Below, one piece after another: positions 32,575-54,934 of a stretch of DNA of 64,000 nucleotides (its first letter is position 1; each line of letters starts with the position of its first letter). The position numbers and the translations under genes were made by a program. The DNA comes from an uncultured Acidobacteriota bacterium (GTDB lineage: Bacteria > Acidobacteriota > Thermoanaerobaculia > Multivoradales > UBA5704). The notes beneath the pieces are model-generated. The model was not told the origin of the DNA. It ran no database searches and saw only the letters and a list, made by a program, of their open reading frames with translations. The stretch spans positions 1,824,001-1,888,000 of the forward strand of contig CAVYRF010000002.1 of assembly GCA_963770895.1 (NCBI GenBank), written 5' to 3'.

Positions 32575-32612
32575 TATTTTAGTTCCATTATGTTACGCGG
32601 CTCTTTGCTGGG

Positions 32613-33125: not shown

Positions 33126-33278
33126 TTCTCCTCCTTCATTTCTCCGTGCTGACCTGTCCCCAATGACTGGTCAGTCCGAAAGGTGAGTCCCCGCCCGGGC
33201 CGCCGTCCCCCCGCCGTGGCCGGCGCCGGCAACGCTTTCGTGCGCGAACGTGCCGATCCGCAACGCCGGCTCGTCCCC

Positions 33279-35717: not shown

Positions 35718-35736
35718 GGACGTTCCACCCCCAGGT

Positions 35737-36108
35737 TTACTTCTTGCCACTCGAATTCTTGCCGCTGGACCCTCGCGATGCGTGGGGTCCCGGCTGGCTC
35801 TTGCGCGGGGCGACGCCACCCACGGGTGACGGAGCGCTGTGGTGAATCAGGAGCGTTTCGACCCGATGATCCGGGTCGGAACCGTTGACCAGGGTGCCTT
35901 GGAACGTGGCATAGGCGTCGTCGACATAGATGGCGTTCGTGCCGCTGAACACTACCGGATGACCGTCCACGGCAATCGTGCTGTTGGGCGAAAGGCCCAC
36001 CGTATTCATGTAGTCCTCGGCCCCAGGAGGATCGGGGCGCACCAGCAGGGTGCTGTCCAAGTAGTAGTAGGTATCCTCGCCTTCCAGCAGCGTTCCGACG
36101 TAGCGCAT
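35737..36108 (-). CDS. Small hypothetical protein
   Basis: AGAGG RBS and coding bias. Ends 19 bp before the next ATG. Confidence 0.65.
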   Translation of the reverse strand: MRYVGTLLEGEDTYYYLDSTLLVRPDPPGAEDYMNTVGLSPNSTIAVDGHPVVFSGTNAIYVDDAYATFQGTLVNGSDPDHRVETLLIHHSAPSPVGGVAPRKSQPGPHASRGSSGKNSSGKK

Positions 36109-36335
36109 TGCGCACCTCTTTCTGCGAGAGTTGCGCGCCAGTTGCTGGCACGTACTCCTGACAGAGAGGTAGACGGACCCAGCTGCGGTTTTCTCAGGCC
36201 AGCGGCGGCGAATCGAGATTCGCAGGCCGGTGCGCAGCGGGGTAACGGCGATCCAGCGACTGATCTCTGCGCACGACAGCGGTGATCAGGCCGGAACCCT
36301 CGCCGTCAAGGCTCGTTGGGCGCTGCTTCCCCGCG

Positions 36336-36437: not shown

Positions 36438-37820
36438 ATGCAGCAAGTGAAGCAGGCGAACCGCTTGACCTTTGACTACCCATGGACATCGCCCCGCGGC
36501 GGTTGCCAACCCGAGCACCGCGGGGGCGGACGCGCCAGTGTTTGTTGCGGCCCTGGGCTCGTGGTCGTCCTCACCGCTCTCACCGTCCAGCTCCTTGCGG
36601 CGATCCACGGCCAGGCGGCGATGGCCGGTGAGCCGGCGCCGGAAACGGCACTGCCTTCCGCTGCGGCGGCGCCCTTGCCGCAGGAGCTGCGGCCGCCGGA
36701 TCTGGGCGACGGTTTGGCGGTTGCCGCGGTGGGGCCGGCGGCAGTGGGCGGCCTGGATGCGCGGCGGCTCGCGACGATCGGCGAGCGCATTCGCGACGGC
36801 GGCTTTCAGCGCATCACCAGCGTGGTGGTGTTGCTGGACGGCAAGCTGACCTATGAAGGCTATTGGGGTGGCGCCGACCGCGACACGTTGCACGACATCC
36901 GCTCGGCCAGCAAGACGTTGACCAGCATGATGGTGGGGCAGGCGATCGCTCGCGGCGCCATCCCTGGTGTCGATACCAAGGTTTTCAGCTACTTCACCGA
37001 TCGGAAGAACCCGCCTGGCGGTGCGGGGAGCGCTGACGGCTTGCCGTGGAAGAACCCGGACCCGCGCAAGATGCAGATCACCGTCGAGGATTTGCTGACC
37101 ATGAGCTCGCTGCTCGAATGCGACGACAACAACGACGCCTCGTCCGGCAACGAAGAGCGCATGTACGTCACCGAGGACTGGCTGGGCTTCTTCCTGGACC
37201 TGCCGATCAAGGGCTTCCCTTCATGGGTGCCGAAGCCCAAGGACTCACCCTATGGCCGCTCCTTCTCCTACTGCACGGCGGGGGTCTTTGCGCTCGGCAG
37301 GGTGCTGGAAAAGGCAACGGGGCAGAGCGTCCCCGACCTGGCGCGGGAAGGAATTCTGGCGCCGCTCGGCATCGGCAAGGTCGACTGGAAGTACTCTCCG
37401 CTGGGCGAGGCGCAGACCGGCGGCGGCACCGGCCTGCGCAGCCGCGACCTGGCCAAGCTGGGCCAGCTCTACCTGGACGGCGGGCGCTGGCAGGGGCGGC
37501 AGCTCATCCCGCGCGGCTGGGTGGAGGTTTCCACCGCCGCACACGCCAAGGCGAGCGACACCGACACCTACGGCTACCTGTGGTGGCGGCGCGACTTCGT
37601 CGCCGGCGGGCGCGCCTTCCCTGCCTTCTACATGTCGGGCAACGGTGGCAACAAGGTGGTGGTGGTGCCGTCGGCGAAGCTGGTGGCGGTCATCACCAGC
37701 ACCAACTACAACAGCCGAGGGATGCACGAGCAGACCGCGAAGCTGCTCACCGACTACATCCTGGCGGCGCTGCCCGCGAGCAGCGCGGGCGGCAGCCAGG
37801 GGGCGCCGACGACGCCCTGA
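36438..37820 (+). CDS. Serine hydrolase, beta-lactamase class C/AmpC-like family, exported
   Basis: SxxK (RSASKT), FSYCT, RDLAKLGQL, YGYLWW and SGNGGN. AGGAGG RBS and an N-terminal hydrophobic segment. Confidence 0.92.
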   Translation: MQQVKQANRLTFDYPWTSPRGGCQPEHRGGGRASVCCGPGLVVVLTALTVQLLAAIHGQAAMAGEPAPETALPSAAAAPLPQELRPPDLGDGLAVAAVGPAAVGGLDARRLATIGERIRDGGFQRITSVVVLLDGKLTYEGYWGGADRDTLHDIRSASKTLTSMMVGQAIARGAIPGVDTKVFSYFTDRKNPPGGAGSADGLPWKNPDPRKMQITVEDLLTMSSLLECDDNNDASSGNEERMYVTEDWLGFFLDLPIKGFPSWVPKPKDSPYGRSFSYCTAGVFALGRVLEKATGQSVPDLAREGILAPLGIGKVDWKYSPLGEAQTGGGTGLRSRDLAKLGQLYLDGGRWQGRQLIPRGWVEVSTAAHAKASDTDTYGYLWWRRDFVAGGRAFPAFYMSGNGGNKVVVVPSAKLVAVITSTNYNSRGMHEQTAKLLTDYILAALPASSAGGSQGAPTTP

Positions 37821-39592
37821 CGCTCGCGGTCGACCAGCCGGCGCATGCGCGCCAGGCGCTCGCCGAACCGCGCGTCGCGCCGCAGCGCCACCAGCATCGG
37901 CTCCAGCTCCAGCCAGCCGGCGTCGCGGTAGCCCAGGTCGATGGCGGCGTCCAGCGCCTGGAGCGCCGCGCCGTCGTCGCCGGCGGCGGTTTCGAGCAGT
38001 GCCAGGTCGAGCCCCGAGTCGGGCCACTCGTCGCCCTCGGCCCGGCCGCGCCGCAGCGCCTCCGCGAGGTCGCGCAGGTCGCGGCGCCGGCTCTCCAGGG
38101 TGGTGCCGGCGGCCACCGGCTGGCCTGCCGGGAGGTGGGCGCCCGCCTCCTGGAGCGCCAGCACCAGCAGCCGGGTCCGCGCGCGCAGGTCGTGGGGAGC
38201 CACGGCGAGCGCCTGGGCGAAGAACGCCCTGGCCCGCGCCGTGTCGCCGGCCAGGAGGGCGACCGCGCCGCGGACGTCGGCCAGCTCGGGGCGCCGGATG
38301 CCGCGCGCGATGGCGCCCTCGGCGATCGCGTCCGCCTCCCGCACCCGCCCCTGCGACAGGCGGGCGGCGGCGAAGGCGGCGGCGGCAAAGACGTTGTCCG
38401 GGCGAAGCTCCAGGGCGCGCTCGAACCAGACCGTCGCCGCGGGTTCGAAGCCGAGCGCGGCCAGGGTTCCTCCCACCTGCACCTCCAGGTAGATGGGCGG
38501 GTCGCCCGCTCCCAGGCGGGCGGCGCGCACGTCGGCTTCCAGCGCCGCCGCCAGGTGACCTTGGACCTGCAGCAGGTTGGCCGCGCTGGCCAGGGCGGCC
38601 GCCGGCTGCGCCTCCAGGCCGGCGGCGAGCTGGTAGGCGGCGAGCGCCGCATGCACCTGGCCGCGGCTGTCGCGGGCCAACCCAAGAGCATGGTGCGCCC
38701 TGCCCAGCCGCGGGTCCAGGGCCAGGGCTCGCTGCGCCAGCGCCAGCGCCTGGTCGTCGCCGCCGTGCTGGTTGAACTTGGTGCCGCGCTGGGACAGCGC
38801 CATGCTCAAGCCCGCCAGCGCCTGCGGGTTCCGCGGCTCGAGCTGCAGCGCCCGCTGATAGAGCTCGATCGCCAGCTCGTTGTTGGCCTCCTGGTGCTGC
38901 CCCAGGTAGGCGTCGGCGCGCCGCACCAGCTCGGCACCGGTGGGTGAGCGGGTTGCCACCGGGGCGGCCGGATCGGCCGTGGCGGCCGCTGCGGCCGGCG
39001 GTGCGAGTCGCGGGTCGAGCTGGCCCTGGCGGTCACGGTGCTGCCGGTAGGCGGCGACAAGCGCCAGGCCGGCGACCAGCAGCACGACGGCCGCGACGCT
39101 CAGGGCGGCAAGGGTGCCGGTGCGGCGGCGGGTGCCCTGGCCCTCGCCTGGCTTTCGGTCGGGCTGCTGGTGGCGCTCCCGGCCAGGTTCCTGGGCAGGC
39201 GTCTGGCGGTGTTCCTGGTCGAGCTCCAGACCGGGCTGCTGGCCGGACTCCTGGTGGCCTTCCACCAGCACCGCGGGGACCAGCTGGTAGCCGCGCCCGC
39301 GCACCGCTCGCAGGTAGCGCGGGCTCCTGGCCTCGTCGCCCAGCGCCCGGCGCAGCAGCGCGACGCGCTGGGTGAGCGTTTCGTCGGCGACTGCCACCCC
39401 CGCCCAGACGGTGGCGATGAGCTCCTCCGGCGACACCACGGCGGGGGCGCGGCGCGCCAGCGCGACGAGCAGGTCGAACGACAGGCGCGGCAGCTCCACC
39501 TTGCGGCCGTCCTGGTGGACAACGGTGAATTCTTCCAGGTCGACCGTCAGGTCGGCGATGCGGAACCGCTTTTCGCCTGGCTGCCGGAGCAT
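37754..39592 (-). CDS. CadC/ToxR-like regulator: winged helix + TM + TPR
   Basis: FDLLVAL...VSPEELIATVW...LTQRVALLRRALGD..YLRAVRGRGY, one TM helix, then TPR repeats. Confidence 0.9.
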   Translation of the reverse strand: MLRQPGEKRFRIADLTVDLEEFTVVHQDGRKVELPRLSFDLLVALARRAPAVVSPEELIATVWAGVAVADETLTQRVALLRRALGDEARSPRYLRAVRGRGYQLVPAVLVEGHQESGQQPGLELDQEHRQTPAQEPGRERHQQPDRKPGEGQGTRRRTGTLAALSVAAVVLLVAGLALVAAYRQHRDRQGQLDPRLAPPAAAAATADPAAPVATRSPTGAELVRRADAYLGQHQEANNELAIELYQRALQLEPRNPQALAGLSMALSQRGTKFNQHGGDDQALALAQRALALDPRLGRAHHALGLARDSRGQVHAALAAYQLAAGLEAQPAAALASAANLLQVQGHLAAALEADVRAARLGAGDPPIYLEVQVGGTLAALGFEPAATVWFERALELRPDNVFAAAAFAAARLSQGRVREADAIAEGAIARGIRRPELADVRGAVALLAGDTARARAFFAQALAVAPHDLRARTRLLVLALQEAGAHLPAGQPVAAGTTLESRRRDLRDLAEALRRGRAEGDEWPDSGLDLALLETAAGDDGAALQALDAAIDLGYRDAGWLELEPMLVALRRDARFGERLARMRRLVDRERQGVVGAPWLPPALLAGSAARM

Positions 39593-39653
39593 GCGCCAAG
39601 AATACTGCGGCCGCTGGGCGCCGGCCGCGCCGGCCGGCGCCGGGGGCTCCGCG

Positions 39654-40433
39654 TCAGCCCGGCGCCAGGGCCAGCACGCGCAGAGGGCTGCCGCTGCCCT
39701 GGACGATCTTGAGCGGCGCGGCGATCACCACGGCACCGGTCGGCGGCAGCTGGTCGAGGTTGCGCAGGCTGGTCAAGCCGAAGCGGCCGGCGCCGTGCAT
39801 CAGGGTGTGGCAGGGGAACGGCGGATCGAAGCGGCCGGCCTGGCCGGCGTCGGTGCCGACGGTCTCGACCCCGACGCCAAGGATGTCGCGATGGTGCGCC
39901 AGCAGCTCGATCGCCTCGCGGTCGAAGCCCGGACTGTGCGGGCCGTCGTCGGCGGCGTTGAGAAAGTCGCGCGCGCCGCTGCGCCGGCTCCAGCCGGTGC
40001 GCAGCAGCACCCACGACCCCGCCGGGATGGCGCCGTGCGCCTTCTCCCAAGCGAGCAGGCGGTCGCGGCCGAGCAGGAAATCGGCGTTCGCCGCCACCTC
40101 CGCGGTGACGTCGACGACGCAGGCGGGGCCGACGAAACGGCCGGCGGGGATGGTGTCGCAGGCGTTGCCCGGCAGGTCCCTGCCGGTGATCCAGTGGATG
40201 GGGGCGTCGAAATGCGTGCCGGTGTGCTCGCCTAGGCGCAGGCTGTTCCAGTACCACGCCGGGCCCTTCTCGTCGTAGCGCGACAGCACCTCGACCGAGA
40301 GACCGGGAGAAGCGGCGAACTGCGGCGGCAGATCGATCACCGGCGTATCCGGCCCGAGCGGCTGCGTCAGATCGACCACCCGCACCGTGCCGCCGGCGAG
40401 CGCTGCCACCAGCTGTACCAGGACGTCCGTCAT
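39654..40433 (-). CDS. Cyclase-family metallohydrolase (kynurenine formamidase/isatin hydrolase type)
   Basis: EHTGTHFDAPIHW, LLRTGWS, GVETVGTDAG and APLKI..GSGSPLR. Confidence 0.92.
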   Translation of the reverse strand: MTDVLVQLVAALAGGTVRVVDLTQPLGPDTPVIDLPPQFAASPGLSVEVLSRYDEKGPAWYWNSLRLGEHTGTHFDAPIHWITGRDLPGNACDTIPAGRFVGPACVVDVTAEVAANADFLLGRDRLLAWEKAHGAIPAGSWVLLRTGWSRRSGARDFLNAADDGPHSPGFDREAIELLAHHRDILGVGVETVGTDAGQAGRFDPPFPCHTLMHGAGRFGLTSLRNLDQLPPTGAVVIAAPLKIVQGSGSPLRVLALAPG

Positions 40434-41062
40434 GGGCTGCTCCTCGTGCTCGCGTTGCTGAGGTTGCTGGCATTGTTCGCGTCGTTTGCGCCGCCGGCCA
40501 GGCCGCGCAGATGGCGCTCGAACTGGAAGCGGTTCTCCAGCAGGTGCAGGTCGATGAAGTAGCTTGCCGGCCCTTGCGGCTCGACCTTGGCGACCAGCAC
40601 CGCCAGATCCCCCGCGTCTAGCGCCTCCTGGCAGGCCAGCGCCAGGCTGTCCGTGGTGCGGTAGGTGCCGCTGCGCGGCACTCCCGCGGCGGCGGCGATC
40701 GCGGCCAGGTCGCTGCCGGTCGCGGTGGCGGTCGAAAAGCTGCGTCCGACCGAAAGCAGCGCCTCGTTGTCGAAGACCACGTGCAGCAGGTTGCGCGGCC
40801 GGTGCCGCGCCAGGGTGGTGAAGGTCCCCAGGTTCATCAAGACCGACCCGTCGCCATCCAGCACCACCACCTGCAGCTGCGGCCGCGCCAGCGCGATCCC
40901 CAGCCCCACCGAAGACGCCAGCCCCATCGAATGCCAGACGTAGAAGAACCCCGGCTGATGTCCGAGCGAAAACAGCTCGGCCGGCGCCGCGCCCATGTTG
41001 GTGACCACCACCCGGTCGGCGAGCAGCGGATAGATCGCCCGCAGCGCATCGATGCGCAGCAT
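40430..41062 (-). CDS. comE: ThDP-dependent decarboxylase beta subunit (ComE-like)
   Basis: SMGLASSVGLG and the GDGSVLMN...DN ThDP motif. Coupled to both neighbours. Confidence 0.8.
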   Translation of the reverse strand: MLRIDALRAIYPLLADRVVVTNMGAAPAELFSLGHQPGFFYVWHSMGLASSVGLGIALARPQLQVVVLDGDGSVLMNLGTFTTLARHRPRNLLHVVFDNEALLSVGRSFSTATATGSDLAAIAAAAGVPRSGTYRTTDSLALACQEALDAGDLAVLVAKVEPQGPASYFIDLHLLENRFQFERHLRGLAGGANDANNASNLSNASTRSSP

Positions 41063-41586
41063 CACGCGGGCCGCTCCTCTTCCCACATCAGCTCCCGGCC
41101 CAGCAGCAGCGCCACCGGCCGCAAGCTCGCCTCGGCCAGGCTCTGCGCCTGGCGCATCCTGGCCGCCACCTCTTCCTGCCGCTCGAGCAACAGCCAGGGG
41201 ATGCGCAGAGCGCGCAGCAGATCTTCCGTGACCCCGCCCCCCTCGGTCTGCCAGGGGTGTTCTTCGCCAAAACCACCGCGGTAGCTCACCAGCATCAGCA
41301 GCGGCACCCGATACAGCTGGGCCAACGACACGATGGCATTGACGCTCGCCAGCAGCCCATGGTTCTGCATCAGCATCGCCGACCGCACTCCAGCCAGGTG
41401 CGCGCCCACCGACACCCCCACCCCCTCCTCCTCCTTGGCCAGGCGCACCAGCGTCATCTCAGGATCCTCTTCCGCCAGGCTCACCAGCTGCACCAGCCAC
41501 GTCTCCGGCAACACCGACAGCAGCCGCACCCCGCAATCCTTCAGGGCCTGGTACAACCGCCGCGAATTCGCCACCGATACCGGCAT
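41062..41586 (-). CDS. comD: ThDP-dependent decarboxylase alpha subunit (ComD-like)
   Basis: LAKEEEGVGVSVGAHLAG, MLMQNHG and LMLVSYRG..GE. Confidence 0.82.
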   Translation of the reverse strand: MPVSVANSRRLYQALKDCGVRLLSVLPETWLVQLVSLAEEDPEMTLVRLAKEEEGVGVSVGAHLAGVRSAMLMQNHGLLASVNAIVSLAQLYRVPLLMLVSYRGGFGEEHPWQTEGGGVTEDLLRALRIPWLLLERQEEVAARMRQAQSLAEASLRPVALLLGRELMWEEERPA

Positions 41587-41766: not shown

Positions 41767-42030
41767 CTAGCCGTTGCGGAGCGGCCTGCCCGACGACACG
41801 GAGAGGACACGCGCATCCTCTTCGAGACGCGCCAGGGCGTCCGGCTGCACGAAGGCAGTGAAGATCTGGGGCGTCAATCGCGTACGGAGCGCGATACAGG
41901 AAGGCACATAACCGTCCGACGCCACCCGGACGACGGCCAGCAGAGGACCGGCGCGGGCCGTGCGGGCAAGCCACCGCAAGCGAGGCTCGATCTTCCTGGA
42001 CATGGGCTCGATGAGCGTCGAGTCAGCCAT
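41767..42030 (-). CDS. Stand-alone subtilase prodomain-like protein (putative protease inhibitor, 87 aa)
   Basis: AAAGGA RBS. IEPRLRW...VVRV...IFTAFV..DALARLE....V.SV..GRPLR parallels the prodomain of the upstream protease (LEPRLRW...TARV...IVTARV...VEEIG..PFL..L..ARPVR). Confidence 0.72.
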   Translation of the reverse strand: MADSTLIEPMSRKIEPRLRWLARTARAGPLLAVVRVASDGYVPSCIALRTRLTPQIFTAFVQPDALARLEEDARVLSVSSGRPLRNG

Positions 42031-42145
42031 GTTGTCCTTTTTCTTTTTGCCTGGCCTGCTCTCGCACTGCAAGGCAAAAATCCGAGTTTGGCGCTGGCTT
42101 CATGTATATCATAACCGCCCGCATTCGCTGCCGGTTCCACCGCAA

Positions 42146-44314
42146 TCAGGATGGTAACCGGTGGATCGCCTGGATCGCGGCGCGCGCTTCGATCCGCCCC
42201 CAGCCGTAGCGTTCGTGCCACACGTGATCGGGCGGCGAGACCCGCGCCGCGGCGCGCAGGATCTCGCGAATGCGCGTCATGGACAGGTGCAAACCGCGTG
42301 CCTTTGCCTCGGCAAGCATCAGCGCGACGACTCCGGTGACGGCGGGAGCCGCCATGCTCGTGCCGCTGAGCGGAATCCTCTGCGTGCCGCGGCGGGAGCA
42401 GGCCGCCTGGACCGCCTGGCCCGGTGCGCTCAGCTCCGGTTTCTGCCGCCCGTCACGAGTTGGACCGGCACTGGTGAACGCGGACAGCGGCGTGCCGGTG
42501 CTGGTCGCGTCATAGGAACCGACGACGATCGGTTCGCGGCCGCACGCGATGGACCCCAGCGTAAAGCTGCGATCGACAGGCTCCAGGAACCGCGCCGTAC
42601 GGTCCCGATACCTCTCCATCCAGGCGTGAAACGTGCCGTCGATGACGCGGCGCCCGCGCAGCCGCAGCCGCCATTCGCCCGCGGGAAGCGCCGGTCCCAT
42701 CGCGATCAAAACCTGGGCCGGCTCACCTGCCAGACCTCCGCCCACGTGGCTGAGCAAGCCGCCCACAGCGCCCGCCCTGCCCGTCAGCTCGACATCCGGA
42801 TCGCCCGCGGCCAGCGGCGGGGATACCAGCTTGCCGCGAGGATCGATCAGCTCGACGGTGAGGTCGTCGTCCGGCGAATACCAGCCTTCGATTTCGATCT
42901 GCCGCTGGCGCGAACGCCGCACCTGCCAGGAGATCTCGTGGCTGCCGTCCTGGCCGACATGCCCTGTCACGTGGATGCCGGCATCAAAGGTATTTCCCGC
43001 GGCGATCACGATGGCGCGGTCGGGCGCGCCGCCCAGCATTTCGTCCAGGAAGACCTCGACGATGGAGGAGCCGTCGTGGGGACCGGCGTCGGTCGCCAGG
43101 CTGAGGTTCACCACGCAGGGCCGGTCCCCTGCCTGGCGGAAGATGAACTCGACGGCGTTCATCAGCTGCGTCGAATCGCTGAGGGAGCTCCGGCGGCGGC
43201 CGTCTGCCGGCGACGCTTCGCCGGCAAGGCACACGAAGATCAGCTCCGCGCCCGGCGCGATGCCCGCGACTCCGGTGCCGCGTCCGCCGCCGGCGGCGAT
43301 ATCCATGACGTGCGTGCCGTGGGCGCTCAATTCCGGACGATAGCCGAGGGCCTTGTAGGGAGCGGCGGTTTGCAGAGCGGCGTCGATCTGCTCCCTGGTG
43401 TGGACGCCGGTGTCACCCTGTGCCTGATCCCAAAGCGCCAGCAGGCGGGTCTTGCCATCCTGCTGGCGAAAGTTGGGGTGCGCGAAGTCGCAACCGAAAT
43501 CGACGATGCCGACGATCGCGCCGCGACCAGGCTCTCCCGAGGTCAGCGCCGGCAGCTGCAGTGGGGCCGCCGCGGTCTCCTCGACGGTCCGGTGCAGGTC
43601 CGGGCGGACCGGTCGGGCGGCGGCCAAACCCTGCAGGAACGGCAGCCGGCCGATCTCTTCGACCCGGTGGGGCGGCACGCGTGCGGTCACGATCCATTCG
43701 CTTCCGGCGCGCCGCGGCACGGCGATGCCGTGCGCGATGCCGGTCACCTTCTCCCAGGACGGGAGGTCGGACACCCGTGCCGTCACCGGGATGGTTCCTC
43801 CGGTTGCTGCGAGCCGCTGCGCCGACTGGAGCTGCCAGCGGAGCCGCGGCTCAAGGACCACCCTGGAGCGTCGCGCCCGTTCGAGCAGCTTCGGCCAATC
43901 ATCGGCGAAGTCGCCCTTGTCGAATACGTCCTCGATCTCCAGCTCTCGCCGATTGATCAGGTCTTTCAGCGGTTTGTCATCGGAGAAGTTGGTCAGCACC
44001 AGCACTGGCAGGTCGGGCCGCTCGCTACGAATCCGTTCGATCAGGCCGGTCGTCGTTCTGGGATGTGTGCCCCAGTTCATGAAGGCGCCCGGCCTTTCTT
44101 CGGGCAGGCGCCAATCCAGGACGAAGGCAACCAATGTCGAGTCCGCGATCCATTCTGCAGCGGTGCTCAACCGCGCCGCCCTCTGGTACCGGATGGTACC
44201 CACCTCGGGCCAATAGCCGACGCTCCGCCCATCGGCGGGCTCATACGCATCGCTTTCATCGACGTGCGCAAGGTACCAACCTACCGGGGGCTGCGTGACG
44301 GGAGCCAGGGTCAC
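42146..44314 (-). CDS. Receiver domain + prodomain + S8 subtilisin-like protease fusion
   Basis: REC motifs HVDES, FVLDWRLP, VLVLTN and FDKG. S8 triad VGIVDFG, HGTHV, GTSMAAP and oxyanion AAGN. Beta insert within the catalytic domain. No signal peptide. GTG overlaps the kinase TGA. Confidence 0.9.
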   Translation of the reverse strand: MTLAPVTQPPVGWYLAHVDESDAYEPADGRSVGYWPEVGTIRYQRAARLSTAAEWIADSTLVAFVLDWRLPEERPGAFMNWGTHPRTTTGLIERIRSERPDLPVLVLTNFSDDKPLKDLINRRELEIEDVFDKGDFADDWPKLLERARRSRVVLEPRLRWQLQSAQRLAATGGTIPVTARVSDLPSWEKVTGIAHGIAVPRRAGSEWIVTARVPPHRVEEIGRLPFLQGLAAARPVRPDLHRTVEETAAAPLQLPALTSGEPGRGAIVGIVDFGCDFAHPNFRQQDGKTRLLALWDQAQGDTGVHTREQIDAALQTAAPYKALGYRPELSAHGTHVMDIAAGGGRGTGVAGIAPGAELIFVCLAGEASPADGRRRSSLSDSTQLMNAVEFIFRQAGDRPCVVNLSLATDAGPHDGSSIVEVFLDEMLGGAPDRAIVIAAGNTFDAGIHVTGHVGQDGSHEISWQVRRSRQRQIEIEGWYSPDDDLTVELIDPRGKLVSPPLAAGDPDVELTGRAGAVGGLLSHVGGGLAGEPAQVLIAMGPALPAGEWRLRLRGRRVIDGTFHAWMERYRDRTARFLEPVDRSFTLGSIACGREPIVVGSYDATSTGTPLSAFTSAGPTRDGRQKPELSAPGQAVQAACSRRGTQRIPLSGTSMAAPAVTGVVALMLAEAKARGLHLSMTRIREILRAAARVSPPDHVWHERYGWGRIEARAAIQAIHRLPS

Positions 44315-47300
44315 AGGGGTGTCGCCTCCTTGGGGAGCGTGACGGTGAAGGTGGTGCCGGCCGCTGGCCGGCAAGCGAACCGCACATCACCGCCGAGCCA
44401 TTGGACGTATCGATAGACCATGAAAAGGCCGAGGCCGAGTCCGGGGTGGTGGGTCTCCTCGGACTCCGAGTCGCCGCGAACGCCTTCGCCATAGAGCGAT
44501 GCGGCGATCGTCGCCGGCAGGCCGTCGCCCTCGTCGCGCACCTCGATGAACACCTCGCGACGGTGACGCCGAACGTCCAGCACGACCTCCGAGTCCGCGG
44601 GCGAGTACTTGCAGGCATTGTCGAGCAGGTTCTGCACGATGTCGCCGACCATCATCTGGTCGAGCATCACCTCCACCGGCTCGCGCCGCGCCTGCCAGTG
44701 GACGACGTGCGTGTCCTTGTAAAGGGATTGCACGATCCGGCGGCGAAATTCCATCTCCGCGACAAGATCGAACCGCTTGAGCAGGGTCGGTGGCGACATG
44801 CCCCGTACCATGCGCATGTAGTTCTGGTGGTTGGAGATCATCAGCGCGCAGTCCTCGGCGAGGTCTTTGAGATAGGACAGGTCGCCCGCGATCAACGACG
44901 CGGGCCGCCGCTCCAGGCGCTTCAGCACGTTGCGCATGGCGTTGATCGGGCTGCCGATGTGATGGAACTGGAGGGCTAGAAGGCGGTGCGTCTGCACGGA
45001 GCGGATGAACTCGTGGACCAGGAATTGCGGCACCATGCGGCACAGCGCGCGGGTCGAAGGGTCGGGAGCCGCTTCGCGTTCATAGGCAAAGAAGAGCAGG
45101 GCGTAGCGTTGCCCGTTGCGCAGCACCGGCACCACCTCACCCAGCAGGATGCCACCGCTGTCGAGCTTGAAGAGCTCCGGGGTTGGCGGATCGCCGAGCA
45201 GCGGCGCCGCCGCCAGCAGGTCGTCGGCTTCGCGCTTCAGCCGGCCGATTTCGATATCGGGCAGCAGGCGCTTGAGCTGCCGCCGGATCACGCTCGAATG
45301 GGTCATCGTCGCTGCGGCGTCGGAATTGAGGATCACCCCCTTTGCCGAGGGGTCCTTGGTCAACAGCAGCACGTGCTGGGCGCGGGCAAGCTCGCCATGG
45401 AGCGAGGCATAGTCGAGCAGGCGGCGCCGCAGGATGCCTTCATCGAAGGAGTCCTCGGGCTCTTCGGGAGCCTCCTGTTGCAGGAAACGCAGCGGCGCGA
45501 CGAAGTCGAATTCGATTTCGACCTGCCGTAGCACGGCGTCGCAGGCCGTCGCAAAGACCGCCGCGATCACTCCGCGCATCTTTTCGGTCACGTTCGCCTG
45601 GCGCACGACCAGCAGCCGGTCCGCCGAGCGCCGCAGCGCGCTGTACAGCGTCCGCGCCGCGGCGAAGGCGGCGCTGGGCGGCAGCTGCGAGATCTCGATC
45701 AGGCTCTGTGCGCACTGCGCCAGCGCCAGGCTGTGGTCTGCCGGCAGGTGCGAGCCTTCCCAGGCCAGTGTCCCGACGTGGGCTCGGGCGCTCTCCCGCA
45801 GGTGCGGATCGACCCCGCCGTCGAATGCGATGGCGATGCCGCAGAGGTTGTAGACGTCGCGGAAGGCTCTCTGGCTGGCGGTTTGCGCCGGCGCCTTGTG
45901 CAGCAGCCTGAACAGCGTGCGTCTGGCCTCGCCTCCCCGTGCGTCACCGGGTGGCGAGGAGCCGGCCTGGCACAGGGCGACGAGGATCTCGGTACAGCGC
46001 CTCTCCGCGGGCGGGTGCACTCGGTGGCGCCTGGCGACGAACTCGAGCACCGCCAGCCGGCAGGTGCCGTCCACCAGCGATGCCAGCAGGTCCCAATCCG
46101 AATAGCCGTAAGCCTGTTGCACTGCCTGTACGCAGCGGTACAGCTCGATTGCCAGCCAGGTGTCGTGTTGATCGAAGTGGCAGTCGCGGAGCCGCTGCAG
46201 CAGCATGGGGAGGAGATACGCGATCACCGGTTGGCGGGCGCTGCGGCGGACGTCGTACGCCATCATGCGACGGATCGCCTGCGAGGTGCGAAACGGCAGC
46301 GCCAGCCGTGGGTCGTTGAGCACCCGCTCGACCAGGAGGCTTTTCATCGAGCGGCCGCCGAAGCTTGCCAGCTCGCCGTTCAGCTCGTCGCCCAGAAAGA
46401 CCTCGAGCGCGGAGCCGTTCGAGTATCGGAAGAACATGTGCGCCACCACGAGCCGGCACCGCAGGTTGTCTTCGGAGGACTCGGGCCCCCAATTCCTGCA
46501 CAGGTCGTGGCACAGGTGTACCAGGCGGGCAAGCTGAGGGCGTAGGTCCGGCGACAAATCGCCGCAGCTGAATGCGGCCAGCCGGAAGGCGCAGCGCAGG
46601 GCGTAGCGCAATCGCAGGTTGGGGTGCCGGCCGCCGGGTGTCCTGATGTGGCCCGCCGCCAGCGTGATCAACTCAGGAAGCAGAGACGAAAAGCCCTCCT
46701 CGTCGTCGTAGCGCAACCGAAAAGCCAGCGCCGACGGGGCCTCGGTGGGCATGCCGACGCTGGCCAGCAGCCACGCCACCTCTTCGAGGGCCTGGCGCAG
46801 CATGGACGCGTCCAGGCCGGCTCCGGCGCCGGCGTCCGAGGAAGCCTTGTGGGCGATCGCTGCCAGCAGCTCAGGGATCAGTCTGCCGCTGTGCAGAGAG
46901 CTCTCGATGCTGGCGGTGAGCGACCGCTCCAGCGTTGCCGGCAGACGTGCTCCGGCGTGAGCGAGGGCGCCGGCCGCCGCGATGGCGATGTCGTGGTTCA
47001 GCCGCCGCACGCTTTCGGCGCGATGGCAAAGCGCCACGATGCGGATGCTCTTGTCGAAACAGGCCAGCGCCACCAGGGTGTGGCCGCGCTCCTCGTCTTC
47101 GCTGGCACTGAGTGGGGAGTCAGGCGCCGCGAGCAGCACCAGGTGCTCGATGGCCAGGGCGTCGGAGTCGGCCAGCCGGATCGCGTAGCTGTGCTCGATC
47201 GGGTCGTCCAGACGCACGACGTGCAGCAGACCCGCCGAGTCCGATGCCAGGAGAACCTGGCGCAGCCGTGGCGGCGGCTCCGGAAGGCCGGGGTCAACCG

Positions 47301-49854
47301 GTACGCCTGGCAGCAGCAGCCGGGTGAGCCCGCCGCCGGTGATGGATGCCGTGCCCCCCACCTCGGCAGCCCAGTCGACGACCAGCTCGGTTTCGCCATC
47401 CGGCACTGCGGCCGGCAGCCGCCGCAAGAGCACCAGGGTGCCGCTGGCATTGCCGATCATCAGCAGGCCGGGGCCGCAGGCGGCGATCATGCGTACGGCG
47501 GCGGCCGCTTCGTAGACCACCTTGCGGCGCGGGGCTCGCAGGTTGCGACCGTCAAACAGCAGCCGCAAGCAGCGACCGTTGTCACAGCCGGCGATCAGCT
47601 CGCCGGTGCCGTCGGCATCCGGGCACCATTCCAGCACGCGGACGGGCGTGTATCCGTCGCCGACGGCGGGAACCTCGGGTGGGCTCTCGTAGCGCACCTG
47701 CAGAGCGCCGTTGCCGGCCGTCACCCGCAGCAGTCCGACGTCTTCCCGCCGCCCTCCGACCGCGATGGCGCCTCCCGGCAGGAGCTTGAAGCCATAGATG
47801 AAGAAGGTTCCAGCGGCGCCTTCGACTGGCTGCGGCGGCGGCCAGCGCAGGCTCTCGGAGGCGCCGACCATGACGTCGGCAAGCGGCAACGAGGTCCATC
47901 CGCGGTCGCGATGGAAAAGGATCAGGTGCTGTCGGGCGGTGGCGGGGTCGCGCCATACGACAGCCTGTTGCAACCGCGTTATCGGGCCTTTTTCATCCTT
48001 GGCCCGGGTGGAGATCAGTCGCTGTCCAAAATTATCCAGCAGATAGGCAAATCCTTCGTCGTACGAAGTGGCAAGCAGCAGGAAGTCATCGCCGTCCCTG
48101 CCGGCCTCGATCTTCTGCAGGGTCGTGACAACCTGCGGCAGCTTGATCGAAGTCCGCTCCGTGTACAGCCGCTCAGCCAGCAAGGAGCGGTAGATCGCCG
48201 CGTCGTAGATGTGATCGCGGCCGTTCTGCTCGTTGAAGCGGGCCAATTTGTGCAAGTTCTGGCGCTTGTCGAAAAAGGACAGGCCGTCCAGGTTGTACTT
48301 GCCGATGTGATGCAGCAGATCCAGCGCAGTGGCGCAAAAGGGCTCATGGTGCTGCGCCACTTCGGCGACCCGCGACTGGACTTCCCGGCACCAGCCGGAG
48401 CCTGCGTCGATCAGCAGGTGGTAGACGATCAGCAGCAGCCGGCGATGGTCGGCGGGTCCCCAGGGCGCGCGCTCGACCTGCCGCAAAAGCCAGTCGCTGG
48501 TTCTGAACAGGAGGGCCAGCACATTACGCCGCAGCTCGCGATCGTCAGGTTGGGCCTGAAGATGCTTCAGCACCGTTGCGAGGTCGTCGATCCCGGCCGC
48601 CCGCGACCAATCCTGAACGCGCCGGTCGAACTCCTGCTTGGTGAGGATGCAAATTTCTTGCAGCTGGTGATTGCCGAGCGCCACAAAGATCGTCGTCGCT
48701 GGCACCGACCTCGCTGCGCCGCGGTCACGGACGGCGAGGGCCAGGACACGCTCGCCCAGCGGCACGGTGAACTGCCGGCCGGTGAACAGCCAGCTGGGCA
48801 TGGCAGACCGGCCGTCCATCACGATTTCCGGGGCATGGTAGAAGTGCAGGAAAGAGTCGTTGGCGCCCGCCGCCAGCCACAACGCGTCGCCGAAATCGAT
48901 CCAGGCGAGTGACGATACGCGGTCGGCGATCGGGCGATCGGTCACCAGGCGCGACTTCGACGTCCCCTCGCCGCCGGCGTCCGCGTGCCAATGGACGATG
49001 TATTTGACATTGCCGCCCTGCGCCACGGCCAGAACGTCGCAGGGCAAGGGCACGCATGCCGGCTGTGGCATCGCGGCCAAGGCGCGGATCGGTCCCGGCT
49101 CTCCCGACAGCCGGTCCGGATGTGACGCGAACGCTTCCGCGGGCGCGAAGTCGACTTGATACAGCCCGCCAAGCATGGTCCCGGCATAGATCCGTGGCGC
49201 GGGACTGCCTGGCCGCGGCTCCCCGGCGGCATAGAGCACGGCCACGGGCTCCCGCGGCGAGGCCAGACGCTGGCGATGGACCGACGGCGGTTCCGGCTTG
49301 GACGGCGGTTCCGGCTTGGCGGCAGGGAAGCCGATGGCTGCACGGACGATGCCGCCATCGGCCAGGCTCACCCAGAGCTCCCGCCGCCCTTCCAGGTAGA
49401 GCAGCGACAGGATGCGCGCCCCCAGGTCGATGCGATGGACGCGCCCGAGCTCGCTGTCGTCCACCCAAGCCGGCTTGCCGGTCTCGTAGTCAAGGAACTG
49501 CAATCCGCCGCCGCCGGCGCCGGCGGCGACCAGCGTTCTCTCGCTGCACGGATCGCAGCGCTCGGCCTGCTCCTCATGGCAATAGATCAGTGTGAGATCG
49601 TAGATCGGGCCTGCGGTGCCGCCTTGGCTGGTGTCCCCCGGCGAGGTCCAGACAACCTGCAAATCAAGGCCAAGCCGCAGGATCTGTCCGCTCTTGTCGC
49701 CGCAGAGGAGGCCGTTGTCCTCTTTCAGGCTATAGCGATCGATCAGTTTCAGCGATCGGGTCTCGTAGGCAAGCGTGAATTTGCCGAGCACCTCGTGGCG
49801 GCCGGAGACGTTGGGGTACTTCGATGGGAACCCTTCAGCGGGCGTGCGGTTCAT
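44311..49854 (-). CDS. Giant soluble histidine kinase (WD40-like beta-propeller regions + helical region + HisKA/HATPase)
   Basis: H-box QFHHIGSPI, NLLDNACKYS, DEGDGL, GLGLGL and GTTFTVTLP. WD40-like blades (VSSLAW..LAAGANDSFLHFY; VRVLEW..LIAGCDNG; VALACFDKSIRI). No clear TM helix. Confidence 0.88.
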   Translation of the reverse strand: MNRTPAEGFPSKYPNVSGRHEVLGKFTLAYETRSLKLIDRYSLKEDNGLLCGDKSGQILRLGLDLQVVWTSPGDTSQGGTAGPIYDLTLIYCHEEQAERCDPCSERTLVAAGAGGGGLQFLDYETGKPAWVDDSELGRVHRIDLGARILSLLYLEGRRELWVSLADGGIVRAAIGFPAAKPEPPSKPEPPSVHRQRLASPREPVAVLYAAGEPRPGSPAPRIYAGTMLGGLYQVDFAPAEAFASHPDRLSGEPGPIRALAAMPQPACVPLPCDVLAVAQGGNVKYIVHWHADAGGEGTSKSRLVTDRPIADRVSSLAWIDFGDALWLAAGANDSFLHFYHAPEIVMDGRSAMPSWLFTGRQFTVPLGERVLALAVRDRGAARSVPATTIFVALGNHQLQEICILTKQEFDRRVQDWSRAAGIDDLATVLKHLQAQPDDRELRRNVLALLFRTSDWLLRQVERAPWGPADHRRLLLIVYHLLIDAGSGWCREVQSRVAEVAQHHEPFCATALDLLHHIGKYNLDGLSFFDKRQNLHKLARFNEQNGRDHIYDAAIYRSLLAERLYTERTSIKLPQVVTTLQKIEAGRDGDDFLLLATSYDEGFAYLLDNFGQRLISTRAKDEKGPITRLQQAVVWRDPATARQHLILFHRDRGWTSLPLADVMVGASESLRWPPPQPVEGAAGTFFIYGFKLLPGGAIAVGGRREDVGLLRVTAGNGALQVRYESPPEVPAVGDGYTPVRVLEWCPDADGTGELIAGCDNGRCLRLLFDGRNLRAPRRKVVYEAAAAVRMIAACGPGLLMIGNASGTLVLLRRLPAAVPDGETELVVDWAAEVGGTASITGGGLTRLLLPGVPVDPGLPEPPPRLRQVLLASDSAGLLHVVRLDDPIEHSYAIRLADSDALAIEHLVLLAAPDSPLSASEDEERGHTLVALACFDKSIRIVALCHRAESVRRLNHDIAIAAAGALAHAGARLPATLERSLTASIESSLHSGRLIPELLAAIAHKASSDAGAGAGLDASMLRQALEEVAWLLASVGMPTEAPSALAFRLRYDDEEGFSSLLPELITLAAGHIRTPGGRHPNLRLRYALRCAFRLAAFSCGDLSPDLRPQLARLVHLCHDLCRNWGPESSEDNLRCRLVVAHMFFRYSNGSALEVFLGDELNGELASFGGRSMKSLLVERVLNDPRLALPFRTSQAIRRMMAYDVRRSARQPVIAYLLPMLLQRLRDCHFDQHDTWLAIELYRCVQAVQQAYGYSDWDLLASLVDGTCRLAVLEFVARRHRVHPPAERRCTEILVALCQAGSSPPGDARGGEARRTLFRLLHKAPAQTASQRAFRDVYNLCGIAIAFDGGVDPHLRESARAHVGTLAWEGSHLPADHSLALAQCAQSLIEISQLPPSAAFAAARTLYSALRRSADRLLVVRQANVTEKMRGVIAAVFATACDAVLRQVEIEFDFVAPLRFLQQEAPEEPEDSFDEGILRRRLLDYASLHGELARAQHVLLLTKDPSAKGVILNSDAAATMTHSSVIRRQLKRLLPDIEIGRLKREADDLLAAAPLLGDPPTPELFKLDSGGILLGEVVPVLRNGQRYALLFFAYEREAAPDPSTRALCRMVPQFLVHEFIRSVQTHRLLALQFHHIGSPINAMRNVLKRLERRPASLIAGDLSYLKDLAEDCALMISNHQNYMRMVRGMSPPTLLKRFDLVAEMEFRRRIVQSLYKDTHVVHWQARREPVEVMLDQMMVGDIVQNLLDNACKYSPADSEVVLDVRRHRREVFIEVRDEGDGLPATIAASLYGEGVRGDSESEETHHPGLGLGLFMVYRYVQWLGGDVRFACRPAAGTTFTVTLPKEATPL

Positions 49855-51892: not shown

Positions 51893-54800
51893 ATGAGCGG
51901 CTCTCTTCCTCCGGCGCAACGATTCAGCCATCTTGAGCTCTGGCGTAGCGGCGTCGGACTGGTGCCGGCCGAGGGGGCGCGGGGATCGGCCTCCGCCGTG
52001 CATATCGGCGAAGTGCCGGGAAGCCGGTTGCCGCTGCGTTCGTGCACGTGCGCCGACAGCCAGAAGCGGACCTGCGATCACCTGCGCGACCTGGGGCGCG
52101 CCCTGGGCGAGCTCAAGCGGCACCTTGGCGGCGCGGCCTGGCAGGAGATGTTTGCCGCCACCGTCTGGTACCGGCTGGCAAAGATCCTCTTCGCGGAGAG
52201 CGGCATCGGCTGCGCGGCCGTGCTGGTCAGCCGTGTCGAAGTGGACGGACGGGCGGCGATCCGCATCACCGGGGGCGGCGGCGAGGAGCTGGCGAGCTAC
52301 CTTGACGGCTCCGGCGCCCAGGTCCGGTTCCTCGAGCGTGCGGGCAAGATGGCGCCCTCGGACGCGGCCTTCGACCGTGCCCGCCTGCTCGACCGGCTGG
52401 CGCTCTTTCAGCGCACCAAGGCCGAGCGCGAGTTGGCGGAGCGCGGCGCCAAGACGCAAGGTCAGGCGTGGGAGGAGAGCTTCTGGCACCGGCTTGCCTA
52501 CCACTGCGTGCGCGAATTCGAGGACCGCGAGGGGAGCTTCCACCCGGCGATCGACACCGGCTCCGGGCGTTTCACCCTCACTTACCGCTGGCAGGGCGAG
52601 CCGGTCGTGCGAGTGGGCGTGCCGCGCGGTTCCGTCCAGCCGGCGCTGCGGCTGCTGGCCCAAGCGTTCCCGGAGCAGGAGGACCTGGCGATCTCGCCGC
52701 TGCCTCTGCAGTCGATCCTGCACGTCGGCGCCGAGACGCGCTTCGACCTGGACGAAGTCGTGGTGCGGCCGGCGATCCGGGCGATCCAGGCAGCGGGCGG
52801 CGAGCGCTACCTCTTCCAGGCCGAGGTCGACAAGTTCCGCTACGGCAGCCTGGTCTACCTGCGCGAGCTGGGCGTGCTCGCCGAGCTCGAGCGGCCGGGC
52901 AAGGAGCGCAAGTTCCGCGCCCCAGCGCACCTGAAGCTCAGTCGCTGCCAGATCCCGGGCTTCCTGGCCGAGCACCGGGAGGAGGTCGTCCAGGGGCGGG
53001 TGGTGCTCGACGCTCCGTTGCGCAATCGCAGGATCTGGAAGGAGATCGACTGGATCCAGGCGAGCGGCGAAGCGGCGGCGCGGAGCTGGTATTGGCTGGC
53101 GATGGAATACGGCTTCGGCAACCATTCCCTCTCGCTCGCCGACCTCCTGGCCGCACGGCGCGGCGGCCTGCCGTTCCTGGAGACCCCGGACGGCTGGATC
53201 GATCTTCACGCTCCTGCCTTCGACCATCTCGACCGCCTGGTCGAGGTGACGGAGGCGGGGGCCGGCGGTGCCGGCCTGCCCGCGACACCGCCCGATTCCG
53301 ATCGTCTGGCGATCCCGGCCCTGGAGCTGCTGCGTCTGCAGGCGCTCCTGGGCCGGCCGCTGGCGATCGCCGGCGACGCGGCGCGCGGCGCCGCCGCGCC
53401 GCTCGGGACGCTTTTGGGCCAGCGCCCCCGCGATCCGCTCGGGCCGCTCGGCGCCCTGGCGTCGCCCCTGCGGCCCTACCAGCGGCTGGGGGTCGAGTGG
53501 CTGCGCTTTCTTGCCGACAACGGGCTCTCCGGCCTGCTCTGCGACGACATGGGACTGGGCAAGACCCACCAGGTGATGGCGCTGCTGGCGAGCTTGCTGG
53601 AAGACGGGCGCGCCACCGCGCCGTTCCTGGTCGTCTGCCCCACGAGCGTGATCAGCCACTGGCGCAACAAGCTGCGCGAGCACGCGCCGGGACTGCGTGC
53701 GGTGATCCACCACGGCAGCGACCGGAGTGAGGACAGCCTGGCGCTGCTGCGGCCCGGAGACGTCCTGGTGACCTCGTATGGCGTGCTGCGGCGCGAGGCG
53801 GAGGAGCTTTCTCGCGTCGCTTTCACGGTCGCGGTGTTCGACGAGGCGCATCATCTCAAGAACCCCGGCACGCAAGCCTTTCGCGCCGCCGGCGGCCTGC
53901 GCGCCGAGATGCGGCTGGGGCTCACCGGGACGCCGATCGAGAACGCCACCGGCGATCTCAAGGCGCTGTTCGACCTGGTGCTGCCCGGCTATTTCGGCAG
54001 CGACGCCGACTTCACGCGGCGTTACGGCCGCGACGCCCGTCCGGCGCAGGGCGCCGCCGCGCAGCAGGGACTGGGGTTGGCCTGGAGCGACGACCTGCGG
54101 CTTGCCGAGCTGCGCCGCGCCATCTCGCCTTTCGTGTTGCGCCGCCTCAAGTCGACGGTGCTCGCCGAGCTGCCGGACAAGATCGAAGACCTTCGCACCT
54201 GCGCCCTGTCCGACGACCAGGTGAAGCTCTACCGCGACGCGATCGCCGGGCGCGGGGACGCTCTCGCCCGCGAGCTGGTGGCGGCGGCCGGCCCGGTGCC
54301 CTACATCCACGTCTTCGCCCTCCTCAACCTGCTCAAGCGGATCTGCGACCATCCCTGCCTCGCCCTGGGCCGCCTCGACGACGTCGAGCAGTGGCGTTCG
54401 GGCAAGTGGGACCTTTTCCGCGAGATTCTGGACGAGACCCTGGGCAGCGGCCTCAAGGTCGTCGTCTTCAGTCAGTTCCTGGGCATGATCGAGCTCATGC
54501 AACGGCACCTCACCGGCCTGGGAGTCGGCTTCGCCACCCTTACCGGGTCCAGCGGCGGCAGCGTCCGCCGCGGCGAAATCGTCGACCGCTTCAACCGTGA
54601 TCCAGACTGCCGTGTGTTCCTGGGCAGCCTCAAGGCCGGCGGCACCGGCATCGACCTGGTGGGCGGCTCGGTGGTCGTGCACTACGACCGCTGGTGGAAC
54701 GCGGCACGCGAAGACCAGGCGACCGATCGCGTCCATCGCATCGGACAGCAGCGCGCGGTGCAGGTCGTCAAGCTCATCACCGAGGGCACGCTCGAAGAGA

Positions 54801-54934
54801 AGATCGCCGCGATCATCGCCAGCAAGCGCCACGTCCTCGACCAGGTCGTCGCCGAGGACGACCCCGGTCTGGCCAAGCTCTTCACCCGCGACCAGCTTCT
54901 GGACCTGCTGCGCCCCCCCGGCCCCGCCGCCTAG
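51893..54934 (+). CDS. SWIM zinc finger + SNF2-family helicase/ATPase
   Basis: CTC..CDH SWIM motif, LRPYQ, DDMGLGKT, DEAH, LTGTPIEN, LRRLK, VFSQF and DRWWN..EDQATDRVHRIGQ. Confidence 0.95.
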   Translation: MSGSLPPAQRFSHLELWRSGVGLVPAEGARGSASAVHIGEVPGSRLPLRSCTCADSQKRTCDHLRDLGRALGELKRHLGGAAWQEMFAATVWYRLAKILFAESGIGCAAVLVSRVEVDGRAAIRITGGGGEELASYLDGSGAQVRFLERAGKMAPSDAAFDRARLLDRLALFQRTKAERELAERGAKTQGQAWEESFWHRLAYHCVREFEDREGSFHPAIDTGSGRFTLTYRWQGEPVVRVGVPRGSVQPALRLLAQAFPEQEDLAISPLPLQSILHVGAETRFDLDEVVVRPAIRAIQAAGGERYLFQAEVDKFRYGSLVYLRELGVLAELERPGKERKFRAPAHLKLSRCQIPGFLAEHREEVVQGRVVLDAPLRNRRIWKEIDWIQASGEAAARSWYWLAMEYGFGNHSLSLADLLAARRGGLPFLETPDGWIDLHAPAFDHLDRLVEVTEAGAGGAGLPATPPDSDRLAIPALELLRLQALLGRPLAIAGDAARGAAAPLGTLLGQRPRDPLGPLGALASPLRPYQRLGVEWLRFLADNGLSGLLCDDMGLGKTHQVMALLASLLEDGRATAPFLVVCPTSVISHWRNKLREHAPGLRAVIHHGSDRSEDSLALLRPGDVLVTSYGVLRREAEELSRVAFTVAVFDEAHHLKNPGTQAFRAAGGLRAEMRLGLTGTPIENATGDLKALFDLVLPGYFGSDADFTRRYGRDARPAQGAAAQQGLGLAWSDDLRLAELRRAISPFVLRRLKSTVLAELPDKIEDLRTCALSDDQVKLYRDAIAGRGDALARELVAAAGPVPYIHVFALLNLLKRICDHPCLALGRLDDVEQWRSGKWDLFREILDETLGSGLKVVVFSQFLGMIELMQRHLTGLGVGFATLTGSSGGSVRRGEIVDRFNRDPDCRVFLGSLKAGGTGIDLVGGSVVVHYDRWWNAAREDQATDRVHRIGQQRAVQVVKLITEGTLEEKIAAIIASKRHVLDQVVAEDDPGLAKLFTRDQLLDLLRPPGPAA

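Follow-up and report, generated by a model that had tools for sequence, protein, structure and literature searches.

The locus described here lies in a 64,000-nt stretch of DNA (the window) from the 8.16-Mb genome (three contigs) of a soil acidobacterium of the class Thermoanaerobaculia, where the guanine-plus-cytosine (GC) content is high, about 0.62–0.77. As a reading made from the letters alone (the sequence-only reading) had reported, the minus strand carries three co-oriented open reading frames (ORFs), all of which were found where that reading placed them: the gene for a cytoplasmic sensor histidine kinase of 1847 aa (44311..49854), the gene for a 722-aa S8 protease fitted with a receiver (REC) domain and a prodomain (42146..44314) and the gene for a small prodomain-like protein, 87 aa counted from its ATG (41767..42030). 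We favour, with a probability of roughly 0.55, the view that the three genes encode a self-contained two-component pathway with a cytoplasmic subtilisin of the CspB type as its output, in which the phosphorylated receiver (REC-P) would loosen a retained prodomain and the small paralogue would re-cap the free enzyme. On this view, the pathway would have arisen when an older cassette, made up of an S8 protease and a free prodomain, gained a receiver and a dedicated kinase.

A kinase, a protease and a small protein encoded in tandem

The kinase gene ends in ...CCC CTG TGA, and the GTG start codon of the protease gene overlaps this stop as GTGA, an overlap that had been noted before and is confirmed here. 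An AGGAGG is situated 10 nt 5' of the GTG, and the two features together suggest that translation of the kinase and the protease is coupled. The small ORF follows 115 nt after the protease gene and has its own AAGGA 6 nt before the ATG; a simple scan detected no terminator-like site between the three genes. GC at third codon positions (GC3) is 0.82–0.84 in the kinase and protease genes (0.84 in the former), matching that of the neighbouring genes. The identical 722-aa protease sequence is on record (P0004), and from 0.05 to 0.25 of the sampled words were found in four DNA runs of one soil-metagenome study, with no RNA dataset among the listed carriers of the sampled sequence.

The C-terminal residues 1620–1844 of the kinase (44323..44997, minus strand, as for all features of the three genes) comprise a DHp region followed by HATPase_c. 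The latter is recognized by Pfam at residues 1733–1843 (E 9.5e-19; 68.3 bits against a cut-off of 26.4) and is the sole Pfam or NCBIfam family in the protein; Pfam HisKA is not called. When a five-row alignment of the kinase family was compared with a profile of DHp and CA regions, gathered by jackhmmer from the same genome with this kinase excluded, hhalign returned a probability of 100% (E 2.5e-39). In that alignment FHHIGSPI falls on the canonical H-box sHELRTPL, which identifies H1631 (H-box FHHIG, codon 44962–44964) as the phospho-accepting His. The first His of the H-box, as well as the N, G1 and G2 boxes, is kept in all five full-length kinase relatives. Judged by its sequence, the kinase has a complete and competent-looking DHp/CA transmitter; the sequence-only reading had described it as complete, and this holds.

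The kinase contains no 19-mer above 1.61 on the Kyte–Doolittle scale, that is, no membrane-like segment, in agreement with its earlier description as a protein without transmembrane segments. An AlphaFold2 model of residues 1–1000 (9-row alignment; mean predicted local distance difference test score (pLDDT) 74.6; predicted template-modelling score 0.52) places a first predicted beta-propeller at residues 20–404 (48643..49797) and a second one at residues 569–942 (47029..48150), separated by a helical domain at residues 406–567 (48154..48639). Each all-beta region is made up of roughly seven four-stranded sheets. The best Foldseek matches of this model in the PDB are tandem WD40 propellers (chains of the small-subunit processome, Elp2, Gemin5 and Aip1), with E about 1e-17 and a probability of 1.0, and Pfam finds no WD40 match in the kinase. 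The WD40-like blades of the sequence-only reading therefore stand as a modelled fold and not as a Pfam family: the N-terminal propellers are, according to the model, WD40-type by fold only. The next ~675 residues, 945–1619 (44998..47022), are uncharacterised; the model, which ends at residue 1000, is helical from residue 945 onwards, and Pfam assigns no family to this region. A GAF-like element just before the DHp was considered here on the strength of language-model atlas scores of 0.83–0.84, a weak lead, and found no support, as the GAF seed had no relatives in the genome and reached an hhalign probability of 1.9%.

A large cytoplasmic protein with tandem propellers, which probably serve as a ligand sensor, resembles the WD40-sensor STAND/NLR conflict proteins, which are Apaf-1-like. 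Unlike them, the 1847-aa kinase has no NTPase domain that could be detected (Pfam finds no NACHT, NB-ARC or AAA_16 family), and its transmitter is that of a histidine kinase. The sensor is also very uncommon. An exhaustive HMMER search of 1.84 billion representative proteins with residues 1–1200 returned eight relatives, four of them full length (1788–1859 aa), one cut at 1244 aa and three fragments, and the full-length kinase relatives share 32–43% identity. Among 401 sampled genomes of the phylum, a match to the sensor was seen in the window's own genome only. The sensor is thus about as rare as the REC-proteases described below.

A receiver domain in the protease had been reported by the sequence-only reading, and profile comparison bears it out. 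It occupies residues 13–149 (43868..44278). An eight-row N-terminal profile, compared with a REC profile from the same genome (built from 71 aligned jackhmmer rows, of which those of at least 90 residues were used), gave an hhalign probability of 97.4% (E 1.4e-11), against 0.1–0.2% for two unrelated profiles run as controls on the same REC profile. The domain keeps the acidic pair D19/E20, the putative phospho-acceptor D67 (the Asp in FVLDW singled out by the sequence-only reading, codon 44114–44116), T108 and K133, and the acidic pair, D67 and T108 are in register with those of canonical receivers in the profile alignment. D67 and K133 are invariant in 8/8 REC-proteases, and at beta-4 the clade has either Thr or Ser. 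In the model, the secondary-structure elements follow one another in (beta-alpha)5 order. By profile and by the modelled order of secondary structure, the N terminus of the protease is a divergent REC domain. Regulators of the CheB type likewise have a receiver fused to an enzyme and a gene situated beside that of their kinase, and the unphosphorylated receiver of CheB keeps the active site blocked; here, in contrast, the output is a subtilisin with a prodomain of its own. One relative has been automatically annotated in one source as 'subtilisin family serine protease/CheY-like chemotaxis protein'.

The receiver is followed by a CspB-type prodomain at residues 156–246 (43577..43849), recognized from family conservation, which sets in at about residue 154, and from its modelled elements (helix 156–168, strands 175–181, 194–200 and 207–213, helix 215–221 and strand 227–232). 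The S8 catalytic domain extends over residues 267–718 (42161..43516), and Pfam matches Peptidase_S8 in the C-terminal ~450 residues with an E of 6.6e-30. The triad D272, H332 and S653 (in GTSM), as well as the oxyanion residue N441, is invariant in 106 aligned relatives, which supports the previous view of the protease as intact. The nearest solved structure, by sequence as well as by fold, is that of Clostridium perfringens CspB (PDB 4i0w; E 8.7e-42), the alignment being continuous across a central insertion; in the model of the protease (mean pLDDT 86.1; Foldseek template-modelling score 0.86 on the CspB target) this is an all-beta jellyroll at residues 448–566. Sequence and model together suggest an active-looking S8 protease of the CspB type. 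The module protein resembles clostridial CspB/CspBA in that the S8 domain is interrupted by an all-beta insertion and preceded by an N-terminal prodomain, but CspB lacks a receiver, a partner kinase and a gene for a free prodomain, and the host here is an acidobacterium. Its score against the NCBIfam model germ_prot_CspBA, 137.9 bits, is well below the cut-off of 1250, so the protease is Csp-like in fold but not an orthologue of the germination enzymes. A second S8 protease of the genome, on contig C1, gave a weak match in the prodomain region and was set aside as an ordinary S8-PA-DUF11-CARDB protease.

As a single sequence the 87-aa protein has no Pfam match, yet a profile of 46 of its homologues matches the prodomain profile of the protease family with an hhalign probability of 85.8% (E 5.3e-6), so that the prodomain look-alike of the sequence-only reading is upheld. 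In this genome, IEPRLRW/LEPRLRW opens the domain in both proteins (7/13 identical; E 0.026). Two language-model atlas leads, which put the small protein beside a CspB_prodomain cluster (0.96, 32% of members) and an Inhibitor_I9 cluster (0.94), agree with the profile alignment. Members of the family have a core of ~65 residues and a conserved N-terminal segment, one Lys of which is invariant. By sequence comparison, the small protein is a homologue, in fact a paralogue, of the protease prodomain. Its C terminus aligns with protease residues ~238–239, and the start of mature CspB aligns with residue ~243; the small protein would therefore end close to the predicted autoprocessing site.

What the small protein does can be read in more than one way. 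Yeast PBI2 is a free propeptide-like inhibitor of the MEROPS family I9. In Plasmodium, a stand-alone propeptide-like protein, SUB1-ProM, is encoded by a gene adjoining subtilase genes and is described as a potent and selective inhibitor of its subtilase (PMC6993865). The module likewise has a small free homologue of a prodomain encoded beside a subtilase; it differs in being bacterial and cytoplasmic and, going by the atlas lead, of the CspB-prodomain type, and its role as an inhibitor is a prediction. Within the same pathway, the small protein might instead be a folding chaperone that acts in trans during maturation of the protease, or else a substrate or pro-effector of the enzyme. Subtilase prodomains double as folding chaperones, and the CspB prodomain is active in trans (PMC3567191); since the protease already carries a prodomain of its own, a second inhibitor may look redundant, and the invariant Lys of the N-terminal segment can be counted on the same side. 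We nonetheless consider this use of the protein unlikely. Its ~65-residue core has no detectable effector domain, its C terminus aligns with the product-like tail of the prodomain, as a plug of the active site would require, and the precedent from Plasmodium is for inhibition. The prodomain of CspB is reported to be effective when added in trans and to inhibit by way of its C-terminal residues (PMC3567191).

Conservation and distribution of the module and of its parent cassette

Three genomic contexts of the module could be read: the window, a genome of the same genus (G009) and a metagenome contig (L093). In all three the kinase, the REC-protease and the small gene occur together and in the same order, which answers in the affirmative the question of conserved synteny raised by the sequence-only reading. 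The kinase is 39% identical over its whole length in G009 and 42% in L093; the corresponding values are 42 and 41% for the REC-protease and 46 and 40% for the small protein. A second metagenome contig breaks off inside the kinase, and a further kinase and protease (P0125 and P0014), both from contigs of 9586 bases, may represent a fourth pair on circumstantial grounds. None of eight flank genes of the window was matched in the G009 and L093 loci, from which the module appears to be a discrete unit set in varying surroundings. Within the genus, a full-length match to the REC-protease was present in one of nine other genomes (G009), several of these genomes being 84–89% complete.

The protease without its receiver is far more common. 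The family, taken with its own prodomain, accounts for 970 proteins at E<=1e-3 among 8000 scored candidates and for 332 confirmed loci in contigs of one genome per species. The 80 loci kept span Cyanobacteria, the Bacillus cereus group, Acidobacteriota, Bacteroidota, Proteobacteria and others. Sixteen plasmid records carry the protease family, and phage records yielded just two weak matches (26–28% identity). A homologue of the small protein is present in 63 of the 80 loci. Seventy-five loci extend for 400 nt or more past the S8 gene; in 57 of them the homologue immediately follows that gene, starting at −150 to +700 nt from the S8 stop, and in 56 of these 57 it is on the same strand. Fourteen loci have room for a small homologue but lack one; they are partly from Bacillota, for example Bacillus, Paenibacillus and Pelosinus. 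No third partner recurs: each of the 25 Pfam families matched most often occurs in at most one of 50 non-redundant co-oriented neighbours, and these families are mostly housekeeping.

All eight REC-proteases (that of the window and seven others covering the receiver part) form one clade with a Shimodaira–Hasegawa-like support of 99 in a FastTree phylogeny of the prodomain and S8 columns, from which the REC columns were excluded and in which long branches lead to the window protein and to P0005. The simplest history would be one fusion of a receiver to a cassette protease, together with recruitment of a kinase. The protease and the small protein are thus a widespread, older two-gene cassette, to which the receiver and the kinase are a rare addition of single origin. 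This is what the sequence-only reading missed: the two genes stand on their own in many bacteria, and the novelty is limited to the receiver and the kinase.

Several of the cassette loci deserve mention in their own right. Copies in Bacillota often have no detectable small partner. On the Bacillus cereus plasmid NZ_CP125990.1 (L096, 7962–16032) there are two S8 paralogues in tandem, with no small gene annotated, a third S8 nearby followed by a 76-aa hypothetical protein, and an integrase and endonucleases close by. The most island-like cassette context seen is that of the Rhizobium plasmid NC_012853.1 (L095, 5021–17161), where an S8 protein of 715 aa with an N-terminal extension and its 85-aa partner are surrounded by two proteins without Pfam families, a PLD-like protein, an AAA ATPase and transposases; the extension was examined as a possible receiver and rejected at an hhalign probability of 0.2%. 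In two further loci, a receiver-less S8 gene is adjacent to kinase genes. In L033 (3043–12128) it lies directly downstream of genes for a 1781-aa Pkinase-AAA_16-GAF-HATPase protein and a REC-HATPase protein, and in L088 (113–5471) it lies 58 nt downstream of a Reg_prop/Y_Y_Y kinase gene, on a contig that ends before the position of a small gene. These kinases could reflect independent recruitment of phospho-signalling to the S8 family, or chance; we did not retain the adjacency as a signal, since about two such cases in 78 are expected by chance on a rough estimate from the typical density of kinase genes.

Genomic surroundings and the question of defence

In the window, the module is surrounded by genes for an M20 peptidase, an SNF2 helicase, a cupin/DoxX protein, a CHAT protein, two halves of a thiamine pyrophosphate (TPP)-dependent decarboxylase, a cyclase and a SARP/TPR regulator, with lipid A genes and a serine hydroxymethyltransferase gene farther out. 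The run at 37754–41586 (minus strand), directly downstream of the module, consists of the two decarboxylase halves, the putative cyclase and the SARP-type regulator with TPR; it may be a small biosynthetic cluster, and its genes are not conserved beside the module in the other loci. A segment at 31199–36151 has a GC content of 0.62–0.65, compared with ~0.70 around it, and holds minus-strand ORFs of 846, 352, 170 and 168 aa. None of these has a Pfam family, the 846- and 352-aa ORFs have no PADLOC match, and the segment may be acquired DNA. Two other segments, 10001–12000 and 22001–24000, have a GC content of 0.77 with AT skews of −0.395 and +0.311, respectively, and may be biased, repetitive coding sequence.

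The sequence-only reading had suggested an anti-phage or cell-death switch, for which no positive evidence emerged. The three module proteins match no complete PADLOC system. Single proteins match a generic subtilase model (E 2.4e-24) and, only weakly, IetS (7e-5) and, through the ATPase domain of the kinase, PDC-M43B (1.2e-4). Nine of the ten neighbours of the module, counted over the window and G009, have no PADLOC match, and the tenth matches ATPase-type models only. The IetAS system, composed of the ATPase IetA and the S8 protease IetS, resembles the module in having an S8 protease as its presumed effector; the IetS match is weak, however, and the module has no IetA-like ATPase. The SNF2-family helicase (51893–54934, plus strand; 1013 aa, the first 520 residues without assignment) was considered as a defence gene and rejected, its matches to DpdE (E 2.8e-107) and ZorD (1.4e-89) being through the helicase core only. 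At 56477–59449 (minus strand), 6.6 kb from the module, there is a gene for a 990-aa protein with a C-terminal, caspase-like CHAT domain and 700 N-terminal residues without assignment. CHAT is an unusually large family in this genome, with 34 matches, and a CHAT protein near the module is therefore not remarkable. TPR-CHAT proteins of 1435 and 1221 aa are encoded slightly upstream of S8-small cassettes in two metagenome-assembled genomes of Acidobacteriota (L045, 4618–8925, and L092, 744–4409).

The patchy distribution, the copies on plasmids and the lack of shared flanks are consistent with an accessory, mobile unit, whatever its function. One could picture a conflict or cell-death switch in which the double-propeller kinase would sense a protein derived from an invader or from damage, REC-P would eject the plug and the free paralogue would act much like an antitoxin; the parent cassette would then be a protease/inhibitor unit of the toxin–antitoxin or abortive-infection kind, outside the PADLOC catalogue. 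We hold this to be a tentative idea with the odds clearly against it.

The published record offers no direct counterpart. A full-text search of one literature library, confined to main texts, found no description of a receiver-S8 regulator, of the three-gene architecture or of the S8/small cassette, in line with the sequence-only reading, to which no described system of this kind was known. A survey of NTP-dependent conflict systems (PMC7159879) describes, in the portion consulted, receiver domains as sporadic among the effectors, mentions S8 domains in another architecture and states expressly that histidine kinases were not found with the vWA-associated effectors, and the part of a study of bacterial gasdermins that was covered (10.1101/2021.06.07.447441) lists subtilases for fungal systems only. 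The parts of the module are all of known kinds, namely a two-component system, a Csp-type subtilase and a propeptide-like inhibitor; their combination is not known to us.

A proposed pathway and its alternatives

In the pathway that we favour, the propellers and the uncharacterised middle region of the kinase would bind an intracellular ligand, probably a protein. H1631 would then autophosphorylate and hand its phosphoryl group to Asp67 of the receiver. The protease, for its part, would cleave off its REC-prodomain by itself, and this piece would stay bound and plug the active site, by analogy with CspB, whose prodomain is retained on the processed enzyme and covers the active site (PMC3567191). 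REC-P, being fused to the prodomain, would change or dimerise it and release the plug, which would result in an essentially irreversible burst of proteolysis. Finally, the 87-aa paralogue, which ends at the tail with which the prodomain would occupy the active site, may re-cap the free enzyme in trans and so set a threshold. The first of these steps comes from a fold prediction, and we infer the other four; as the receiver sits directly on the prodomain, phosphorylation of Asp67 would most likely control retention of the REC-prodomain.

Several points weigh against this picture. Pfam Response_reg is below threshold in all eight REC-proteases (E 0.12 for the window protein and 0.015 for its G009 orthologue; three of the eight reach E<=1, the best being 0.0036), alpha-1 of the receiver (residues 25–38) is modelled with a pLDDT below 50 in the window protein, and there is a 13-residue insertion after the phospho-accepting Asp; in view of these three features, the receiver could behave atypically. 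The hidden Markov model (HMM) of the REC domain matches none of the response regulators of this genome significantly (next E 0.12). The propeller model was built on nine sequences only, with the mean pLDDT given above, the readable contexts of the module number only three and the direction of control, with phosphorylation turning the protease on, is assumed.

The divergence of the receiver, below the Pfam cut-off and with no significant HMM match to the other receivers of the genome, would also suit a pseudo-receiver or scaffold, in which case the kinase would signal to another regulator and the adjacency of the two genes would reflect co-expression only. We find this very improbable. The residues on which catalysis by true receivers depends are kept (D67 and K133 in 8/8 proteins, the acidic pair and the beta-4 Thr or Ser), the kinase and protease genes overlap, and kinase and REC-protease are linked in 3/3 contexts without any other regulator gene in common. 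The polarity of control could also be the reverse of that proposed, so that the phosphorylated receiver would lock the protease and a signal would shift the kinase to its phosphatase mode and bring about release. Many histidine kinases are bifunctional, and nothing in the sequence of the module fixes the polarity; the results obtained here point neither way, and we regard the reversed arrangement as decidedly unlikely.

With few exceptions, the terminal domain of a response regulator is a DNA-binding or second-messenger domain. The fusion of a receiver to the retained prodomain of a subtilisin, if true, would be a two-component output that is direct, post-translational and probably irreversible. 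To our knowledge, how the clostridial germination proteases are unlocked is still an open question, and the arrangement proposed here offers a simple model for the unlocking of Csp-type proteases. The kinase, in addition, brings with it a very rare cytoplasmic sensor with predicted tandem propellers. The analysis also defines a widespread bacterial cassette of a cytoplasmic S8 protease and a free prodomain-like protein, with its 332 species-representative loci, some of them on plasmids. The kinase-controlled variant gives a handle on this cassette, since it implies a protease designed to be under the control of a signal.

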